From assembly GCF_030013595.1 (NCBI RefSeq), contig NZ_CP122768.1: DNA of 64,000 nt. One strand, given 5' to 3'. The position numbers were made by a program, and so were the translations under genes. The DNA is from Escherichia coli. GTDB lineage: Bacteria; Pseudomonadota; Gammaproteobacteria; Enterobacterales; Enterobacteriaceae. Below, in pieces: positions 1-764 of the stretch. The notes under the pieces are model-generated. The model did no database searches. It worked only from the letters and a program-made list of their open reading frames with translations, and was not told the DNA's origin. The stretch's first letter is position 1, and each line of letters begins with the position of its first letter.

Positions 1-437
1 TGTTCAAAGTGATTTTTAGGTTACGGCATAATCTTTTCCATGGAGAAAAATGGTCTTACAACCTCGAAGACCAGGAAGCTAATTTTTCACATGCCAGCAA
101 TGTACTACTATCCTGTTTGACTCTTACTCGCGGGAGTATGTGGCACCCTTGAATGCTGGATGGATATTACGTATCGTCTGATAAGGGGTATCCAGATGTG
201 GCTTGCAAAGAATGCCTGAGCATGTCTGTTATCGCAGAGGCGATCCTGCGCAAGCAGCCAGCTGAGTACCTGCATCTAACGCAGACCAGCTGCTCTTAAA
301 CCGACTTCATTATCAAACATTATTTATTTTTAGCGACTACTTACTACATCTAGTGGTAGCTGAAATAAAATAACCTGCATATAGTGATTTTCGTCGTTTA
401 AGTGCTTGACAATTCTGCACATGGCATTTAACGGTGT

Positions 438-486
438 CTGTGGTAAACTATCCACAGAATAGTCAACAGTGTTGGATTGTGGATAA
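438..486. promoter_or_regulatory. Inverted repeat CTGTGG-N8-CCACAG (438..457) and DnaA-box-like motifs (ctatccaca 448..456; perfect TTATCCACA on the minus strand at 478..486) upstream of a small ORF
   Basis: Read directly from sequence; match to the 9-mer DnaA box consensus TTATNCACA; function not established. Confidence 0.25.
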
Positions 487-510
487 TCGCCGGATATATG
501 GGGAGGATAA

Positions 511-705
511 ATGGCTAAATATGAACTTCGACCACTGTCAGATAGCCGTAAGGCTGACATTGCTCGCAGTGCATTAGCACAAAATAGAGCCCCTGCTAAG
601 CCTACTGCTTCAATGTCCTCTGGCTCTGCTTCAATACAGAGATCACGAGATACTGCGCGAGTAATGATGGATCGTGCATTCAGGACAGTTGTAGCCAAAG
701 GATAA
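511..705 (+). CDS. Hypothetical small basic protein (64 aa)
   Basis: ORF with strong Shine-Dalgarno (gggaggataa ATG) and an intrinsic terminator immediately downstream; preferred over the overlapping minus-strand ORF 330..698, which needs a TTG start and has no ribosome-binding site. Confidence 0.4.
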   Translation: MAKYELRPLSDSRKADIARSALAQNRAPAKPTASMSSGSASIQRSRDTARVMMDRAFRTVVAKG

Positions 706-724
706 TTTTACTTTAATTGATTAA

Positions 725-748
725 AGCGCCTTTTTCTGGCGCTTTTTT
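725..748 (+). terminator. Rho-independent terminator (stem agcgcc/ggcgct followed by a T-run)
   Basis: GC hairpin plus T5 directly after the 511..705 ORF. Confidence 0.5.
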
Positions 749-764
749 ATTGCGGAAAAACCAA

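Follow-up and report, generated by a model that had tools for sequence, protein, structure and literature searches.

Is a small basic open reading frame (ORF), preceded by DnaA-box-like motifs and followed by a terminator, a regulatory unit of its own, the remnant of an origin, or part of something larger? This question is raised by positions 300-750 of a 64,000-nucleotide (nt) stretch of the Escherichia coli contig NZ_CP122768.1 (GCF_030013595.1). The whole stretch is called the window in the following, and coordinates are window positions. A first-pass annotation had described the region as a compact, possibly DnaA-responsive regulatory module or as the remnant of an origin-like region, and the single features on which it relied are all present. 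The inverted repeat CTGTGG-N8-CCACAG occupies 438-443 and 452-457. Two DnaA-box-like sites were found, ctatccaca at 448-456 on the plus strand with one mismatch to TTATCCACA, and a perfect TTATCCACA at 478-486 on the minus strand. The region is AT-rich, with a GC content of 36.5% at 301-500 compared to 42-55% nearby. The ORF of 64 amino acids (aa) is located at 511-705 behind the sequence GGAGG (502-506), has a predicted isoelectric point of about 11.5 and is coding by its substitution and indel pattern. The terminator consists of a stem at 723-745 and a T run (folding energy dG -12.5 kcal/mol, z = -2.7).

Taken one by one, the promoter, the small ORF and the terminator are ordinary. Region 300-750 covers only the first (5') third of a larger element, which had been overlooked. 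It probably comprises the promoter/operator region, the first cistron and the intercistronic terminator of a two-gene mobile cassette (336-1498). The idea of a compact regulatory unit is supported: the small gene and the terminator are real, and the palindrome and the 9-mer are under purifying selection. The terminator does not end the unit, however, but lies between two cistrons.

Extent and mobility of the cassette

The core cassette (336-1498, plus strand, 1163 bp) contains a control region, the 64-aa gene (gene 1), a terminator, a 226-aa gene (gene 2) and a 3' hairpin. The loci compared are given as L-numbers, with L009 for the Pectobacterium copy, L063 for the Providencia homologue and L014 for a copy with a different terminator loop. 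In blastn comparisons, L003, L004, L005, L006 and L008 match the cassette with 91-92% identity and identical ends at 336 and 1498, while their flanks are unrelated. The contig of L007 stops within the cassette. Among 5426 complete E. coli genomes, cassette DNA was found in 7. All 7 copies are located in a lambdoid prophage, with replication genes on one side and DUF1367 (NinB-like)/DUF1364/Q on the other. Elsewhere, copies lie in a fimbrial/DeoR region of a chromosome, next to type I-F cas genes where a myovirus tail module ends, and in a hemN-GNAT interval in Pectobacterium. On plasmids, copies occur on a Rep3 plasmid, on IncFII plasmids beside ParDE and on a plasmid with RepL, zeta toxin and a cyclic-oligonucleotide-based antiphage signalling system (CBASS). 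The GC content of the cassette is 36-44%, compared to about 50% nearby. These sequence comparisons show that in Enterobacterales the cassette travels as one piece between prophages, plasmids and chromosomal islands.

The DNA directly downstream of the insertion (1552-2093), 92.5% conserved, was matched in 423 E. coli genomes. In the one related prophage inspected among those 423, the same place is filled by other cargo, ImmA/IrrE and others. As far as the alignments indicate, the lambdoid prophage has a variable cargo slot, which the cassette occupies. Because the same ends recur in unrelated contexts and a related prophage carries other cargo, we assign 300-750 to the 5' third of a mobile cassette in such a slot. 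A phage database gave no match, near or distant, to 250-800 or 300-760, and a literature search by accession and by topic found no account of the gene pair. The closest prophage copy in a complete genome (L001, E. coli HCP5S3_I2) has an IS3-family element inserted into the cargo region and an ISVsa5 insertion that splits the large terminase gene (insertion sequence sites 9610-10838 and 20591-21799). Since the terminase gene is split, this prophage copy is probably defective.

Outside E. coli, the core sits in a longer element of at least 1.46 kb (L003 5770-7227; L004, L005 and L007; L009 about 5470-7217). It contains hairpin units (GTCCGCTATGAGCGAGRAGCGGAC) and terminal inverted repeats (ATCTGACAGKCYG ... 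CRGSCYGTCAGAT), which are not found in every copy. L005 has a double-hairpin unit of about 70 bp as a direct repeat on both sides. The longer element could be a vehicle similar to a miniature inverted-repeat transposable element or a transposon. An imperfect 22-nt inverted repeat (320-373, 77% complementary, 10-nt spacer) extends across the left end of the core at 336. The other copies do not conserve this repeat, and it has a T run on neither strand.

The 64-aa gene and its reading frame

Gene 1 (511-705, plus strand) encodes a strongly basic protein. In the structural model, its N-terminal helix (residues 11-23) is joined by a disordered Ser/Ala/Pro linker to the C-terminal helix (residues 38-63). 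Compared with the window, the copies differ by 12-28 substitutions, 9-15 of which fall on third codon positions. In the most divergent copy the indels are in frame, and start codon, Shine-Dalgarno (SD) sequence and stop codon are conserved. Because of this third-position bias, the in-frame indels and the conserved signals, the comparison identifies the 64-aa ORF as a real protein-coding gene. Homologues with 62-92% identity occur in Klebsiella, Pantoea, Pectobacterium, Yersinia, Cronobacter and other genera. At every fetched locus, a gene of 225-226 aa starts 58-59 nt past the small ORF. Providencia has almost the same first 24 residues.

The ORF is skipped by the Prokaryotic Genome Annotation Pipeline (PGAP) in all seven RefSeq E. 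coli genomes. Its product matches no Pfam, PHROG, PADLOC or NCBIfam family, no helix-turn-helix (HTH) or ribbon-helix-helix (RHH) family and no PDB profile. Both facts would fit an untranslated ORF in a small RNA or in a mere transcribed leader of gene 2. We regard this as very improbable, as the strong SD sequence is optimally spaced, substitutions prefer third positions, indels are multiples of three and the position of the stop codon is kept. In addition, a syntenic small ORF is retained across phyla, and the region matches no Rfam family.

An ORF of 122 aa on the opposite strand (330-698, minus strand) was considered as a gene and rejected. Its open length varies between 78 and 122 aa, therefore it is regarded as a shadow ORF. 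Within gene 1, a hairpin at 536-560 (plus strand; TGTCAG..GCC-GTAA-GGC-TGACA) is conserved and has a GNRA tetraloop. A synonymous change from CGT to CGC in other copies turns the loop into GCAA, which is still GNRA; the folding is not significant (z = -1.75).

The 226-aa protein and its small upstream partner

Gene 2 (765-1445, plus strand) is annotated as hypothetical by PGAP. Its product of 226 aa has a helical N-terminal domain, a helix of 84 residues and a C-terminal transmembrane segment, and is predicted to be a membrane-anchored coiled-coil protein. The AlphaFold2 model has a predicted local distance difference test (pLDDT) value of 86. W5, V6, Y23, Y26, K27, K30 and H56 are invariant in the N-terminal domain. 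The protein matches phrog_25194, a family of unknown function. Together with 50 relatives it gave no match to a Pfam, PADLOC or NCBIfam family. No structural analogue was found by PDB sequence profiles or by Foldseek searches of PDB and BFVD with the model. The family comprises at least 164 clusters at 50% identity and is distributed over Gamma-, Beta- and Alphaproteobacteria, Bacteroidota and one cyanobacterium (Synechococcus).

A small ORF is located immediately upstream on the same strand at 82 of 86 distinct family loci. With a stricter rule, it precedes 74 of 85 family genes (68 with a basic product) versus 48 of 215 neighbouring genes used as controls (30 basic). The small proteins have a C-terminal amphipathic helix motif in common. 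According to these gene neighbourhoods, a small basic ORF is the near-universal upstream partner of the 226-aa family across phyla. A pattern scan of metagenomes for intermediate lineages returned only near-identical copies. For genome annotation this means that a gene skipped in RefSeq is the conserved partner of a widespread membrane protein without family assignment.

Control region

Measured by composition alone, the motifs upstream of gene 1 do not exceed chance. Motif counts over the 64 kb were compared with the expectation from composition, and 100 shuffles were used for the perfect DnaA box. This box occurs once, with 0.44 expected, and at least once in 38 of the 100 shuffles. The relaxed motif TTWTNCACA was observed 7 times with 6.2 expected, and the palindrome once with 0.11 expected.

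For conservation, four-fold degenerate sites served as neutral yardstick, 21 of 70 of which are invariant over six cassette lineages (f = 0.30). Over the same lineages, 16 of 20 columns of the palindrome (438-457, P = 6e-6) and all 9 columns of the 9-mer (478-486, P = 2e-5) are invariant. Constraint was also found for 396-437, which holds the -35 hexamer (26/42, P = 2e-5), and for the SD region 487-510 (18/24, P = 7e-6). Segments 336-395 (24/60) and 458-477 (8/20) are nearly neutral. Because the invariance of palindrome and 9-mer is far above the 30% at four-fold sites and the DNA between them drifts neutrally, the alignment marks the palindrome and the TTATCCACA 9-mer as discrete islands of purifying selection.

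The cassette seems to have its own sigma-70 promoter, predicted from the following elements. The hexamer TTGACA (406-411, plus strand) matches the -35 consensus, is invariant in all copies and aligns with TTGATA in Providencia. A weak -10 candidate, AACGGT (430-435, plus strand), lies 18 nt past it; an A at position 2 and a T at position 6 are all that it retains, and its sequence varies among the lineages. In the Providencia homologue (L063), whose large protein is 53% identical, TTGATA-N18-TATAGT is found at the aligned position, with TATAGT opposite AACGGT. A possible alternative or tandem element is the extended -10-like sequence TGgTAAACT (441-449, plus strand) in the centre of the palindrome. 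Every copy has TGnTAAACT, L014 in the form TGaTAAACT, and Providencia has TGGTAGACT at the aligned place. The sole candidate of a consensus promoter scanner here, TAGTCA-16-GATAAT (460-487), was rejected; its -10 hexamer reads GATAAC in most copies.

With either -10 element, transcription would be expected to start at about 441-457. Therefore the 20-bp palindrome CTGTGG-N8-CCACAG (438-457), a candidate operator, would cover the start region, and the perfect 9-mer (478-486, minus strand), 67 nt past TTGACA, would lie downstream of either candidate start. This is the geometry of a repressed promoter. The SD sequence GGAGG (502-506, plus strand) follows 5 nt ahead of the ATG and is invariant among the copies. 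The palindrome is unlike the operators in this prophage's immunity region. To our knowledge, the consensus sites of LexA, CRP, GalR/LacI, Fur, CpxR, PhoB and the Mar box misfit its spacing or core. An outer inverted repeat (406-417/455-466) was rejected; its right arm lies within a neutrally drifting segment.

Candidate regulators

DnaA boxes regulate dnaA, nrdAB and guaBA, and they modulate lambda pR. DnaA bound at 478-486 and at weaker inverted boxes in the palindrome could likewise repress or tune the cassette according to the replication state. The palindrome arms can be read as inverted DnaA-like 9-mers, TTTACCACA at 440-448 (minus strand) and CTATCCACA at 448-456 (plus strand). The former has two mismatches and had not been reported in the first-pass annotation. 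Three 9-mers with a CCACA core and zero, one and two mismatches therefore lie within 47 bp. The consensus 9-mer (TTATNCACA) is matched beside the predicted promoter by the invariant 9-mer at 478-486, and the sites overlap or trail the likely start. As the cassette works in many Enterobacterales hosts, a universal host factor would be a sensible regulator. On the other hand, a lone perfect box in 64 kb is at chance level and relaxed boxes are not enriched. One lineage (L010/L013) has three changes in the box at 448-456 (CTGCCCATA), and Providencia, the nearest outgroup, has neither box nor palindrome. Upstream of 69 distant family members no enrichment was detected (4 boxes found, 2.7 expected). 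Moreover, high-affinity DnaA boxes are common as titration sites without regulatory function. On balance we consider control by DnaA doubtful, yet the most plausible of the regulatory alternatives discussed here. It is compatible with the cassette model, in which it may simply give the repressor a name, and it would be specific to this clade. In L009, the additional left arm contains a further perfect TTATCCACA (gatgttgtttatccacagatttt; L009 about 5700-5720) in a possible ORF of 26 codons with a good SD sequence. L015 has ttatccata at the aligned position, one base from the consensus.

The same AT-rich DNA and DnaA-like 9-mers had suggested an origin remnant, or a DnaA-box cluster without present function. 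This part of the first-pass annotation did not withstand analysis. No GATC occurs in 300-520, the best matches to the 13-mers of a DNA unwinding element carry 3 mismatches, and iterons, direct repeats and tandem repeats are lacking. The neighbouring DNA encodes a theta-like fragment and the cassette genes, but no initiator. The DNA is also selectively kept as the leader of the gene pair in contexts that are not replicons. An origin remnant is hardly credible here.

A repressor could also be encoded by the cassette itself. As in toxin-antitoxin operons, the 64-aa protein might bind the palindrome, by itself or jointly with the large protein, and repress its own promoter. The position of the palindrome over the start region, the strongly basic character of the small protein and the order of a small and then a large gene, seen on plasmids and prophages where other toxin-antitoxin systems adjoin, would agree with this. 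The predicted fold of two helices and a disordered linker, without HTH or RHH family match, does not. The N-terminal 24 residues are nearly identical in Providencia, which has no palindrome, and palindromes are not a trait of the family. The two genes are also split by a terminator and not translationally coupled. Taken together, autoregulation appears rather unlikely.

Finally, the three TGTGG/CCACA blocks might act in the RNA. They would pair into alternative leader hairpins (438-443:452-457 or 449-456:478-485) and so set the stability of the mRNA or the accessibility of the ribosome-binding site. Folding of the short hairpin is favourable (dG -10.6 kcal/mol, z = -4.4), and the changes in L010 are one G-U-compatible change and two loop changes. 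A perfect inverted repeat of 8 bp with the arms TATCCACA (449-456) and TGTGGATA (478-485), separated by 21 bp, would provide the alternative partner; it, too, had not been reported in the first-pass annotation. The leader as a whole folds no better than shuffled sequences (z = -1.6), the covariation term is close to zero with one compensatory pair, and no Rfam family matches. Transcripts from either candidate promoter would start within or past the left arm. Such an RNA element is accordingly less probable than autoregulation. Our preferred model is a promoter and operator in front of a two-gene cassette.

Intercistronic terminator and 3' end

The intrinsic terminator between genes 1 and 2 (723-751, plus strand) consists of an 8-bp stem with 5 G-C pairs, a 7-nt loop and TTTTTT. 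Over the six lineages 22 of its 29 columns are invariant, and in L014 the loop differs but the stem is retained. At the same place, distant members of the gammaproteobacterial branch (Marinomonas, Vibrio, Photobacterium, Providencia and others) have a strong hairpin with T run of unrelated sequence, with spacers of 57-97 nt. In Bacteroidota and other lineages, stop and start codons overlap by 1-17 nt instead. The start of gene 2 lies 14 nt past the U tract, behind a weak ribosome-binding site. This arrangement suggests that the terminator serves as an attenuator, which would keep the level of the membrane protein much lower than that of the small protein.

Gene 2 is followed by a GC-rich hairpin with a poor T tract (1449-1485, plus strand; dG -18.6 kcal/mol, z only -1.2). 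Its right arm is conserved and its left arm variable. It is a weak terminator or a 3' stabiliser. In a search of 1-3000, no Rfam family reached its gathering score; two matches below threshold (E = 0.56 and 0.86) were found, one of which overlaps the terminator hairpin.

Proposed function

The gene pair is most likely a conflict module for phage exclusion, defence or addiction. A repressor acting on the palindrome and the 9-mer, with DnaA as a candidate for the latter, would limit initiation. A terminator of modest strength, together with poor ribosome binding at gene 2, would then keep the membrane protein far below the small basic protein, which might restrain or partner the membrane effector. 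This is our best guess because of the defence-related and mobile contexts, the mobility of the cassette, its putative own promoter and a membrane protein that appears to be held back. Immediate neighbours of family members encode integrases, Rha, Bro-N and S24 repressors, and a few encode known defence proteins, namely AbiD (twice), PD-Lambda-1, ThsB, MzaA, RmrT and reverse transcriptases. Plasmid copies adjoin CBASS, zeta toxin, TacAT and ParDE.

In a more specific version, the replication initiator DnaA itself would serve as infection sensor. DnaA on the invariant TTATCCACA and the inverted weak boxes would hold the promoter down in the unperturbed cell, and the terminator would halt most transcripts after the small gene. 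Titration of DnaA by an incoming replicon with many boxes, or its inactivation by replication stress during infection, would open the promoter. With increased read-through, the membrane coiled-coil protein might escape its small partner and arrest or kill the cell, or exclude the invader. A conflict module gated by DnaA in this way is speculative and, in our estimate, quite improbable.

Several results weigh against the proposed model. The promoter is predicted only; the -10 sequence opposite TTGACA is poor, and a consensus promoter scanner chose a different promoter, which is not conserved. Palindromes were detected upstream of only 7 of 75 family members (p <= 0.05) and are no family-wide trait, so that the operator has to be regarded as a clade-specific addition, which argues against conserved autoregulation. 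Across phyla, the small proteins show weak homology (hhalign E = 0.006, probability 6%). Because this profile-profile support is weak, the partnership is claimed as conserved synteny and not as proven homology. An AlphaFold model of a fused small-linker-large protein gave per-residue confidence only and says nothing firm about an interaction. PADLOC 2.0 returned zero families at E <= 1 for either protein. The defence genes next to family members were listed without a genome-wide baseline.

The pair is a reasonable candidate for screening, since it is compact, mobile and located in cargo slots and on plasmids beside defence and toxin-antitoxin genes. As a self-contained mobile unit of 1.2 kb, it would be a cheap and well-defined entry in screens for phage defence, exclusion or addiction. 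The two short constraint islands offer targets for mutagenesis. If DnaA binds the 9-mer, an accessory module would be tied to the replication initiator of the host.

Comparison with known systems

Lambdoid morons, as in the genomes of HK97 and HK022 (work of Juhala, Hendrix and colleagues), are reportedly autonomous units of promoter, gene and terminator between conserved phage genes. Like these, the cassette has a promoter-like element (the promoter being predicted), terminators and a GC content below that of its surroundings, and it is inserted between the replication and NinB/Q modules, in a slot that holds other cargo in the related prophage inspected. Unlike morons, it contains two genes with an internal terminator and occurs also on plasmids and chromosomal islands, sometimes within the longer element with hairpins and terminal repeats.

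With the DnaA-repressed promoters of dnaA, nrdAB, guaBA and lambda pR, the cassette seems to share TTATCCACA and weaker boxes at the predicted promoter, and its box is strictly conserved within the clade. It differs from them in having one high-affinity box only, and in that the outgroup has no boxes and distant relatives show no excess of them.

In type III ToxIN systems, an internal terminator sets the ratio of the two components. The cassette may follow the same logic, with a first component expressed from the promoter and an intrinsic terminator ahead of the second, potentially harmful one. Also like toxin-antitoxin and abortive-infection operons, it is found on mobile elements among defence and toxin-antitoxin genes. 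Its first component is a protein and not a repeat RNA as in ToxIN. Unlike toxin-antitoxin operons, it has no homology to toxin or antitoxin families, and in many relatives stop and start codons overlap without a terminator.

Defence hotspots have been described for P2 and P4 (Rousset et al., 2022; PMC9122126). The cassette resembles such hotspots of prophages and satellites in its variable slot at a fixed prophage position and in its frequent defence gene neighbours. The pair itself matches no system described in PADLOC 2.0.

Flanking sequences

On the left, the core is preceded by a cassette-associated arm (273-335, plus strand). The blastn match of L009 begins at 273, and the arm is partly common to L015 and L010. 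It provides the stop codon and the final codons of a truncated theta-like ORF (153-299, plus strand), which is unannotated. This ORF of 48 aa resembles the theta subunit of DNA polymerase III and Hot of phage P1 (Pfam E = 0.0017, PHROG E = 0.0044), and its three best PDB matches are all theta or Hot (E = 0.1-0.6). Its residues SMSVIAEAILRKQPAE correspond to NMPVIAEAVEREQPEH in theta. The ORF begins in frame right after the TGA of the upstream 183-aa gene (junction 150-155) and seems to be truncated at its 3' end at about 273, where the cassette-associated sequence starts.

On the right, a 77-aa gene (1623-1856, minus strand) matches phrog_5550 (E = 1.5e-53), a family of unknown function. With its surroundings (1552-2093) it forms the fixed right border of the cargo slot. 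At 1968-2081 (plus strand), a match to the Rfam rimP leader stays below threshold (23.6 bits versus a gathering score of 47, E = 0.86). This sequence looks like a terminator-type hairpin upstream of a 222-aa gene (phrog_5215).

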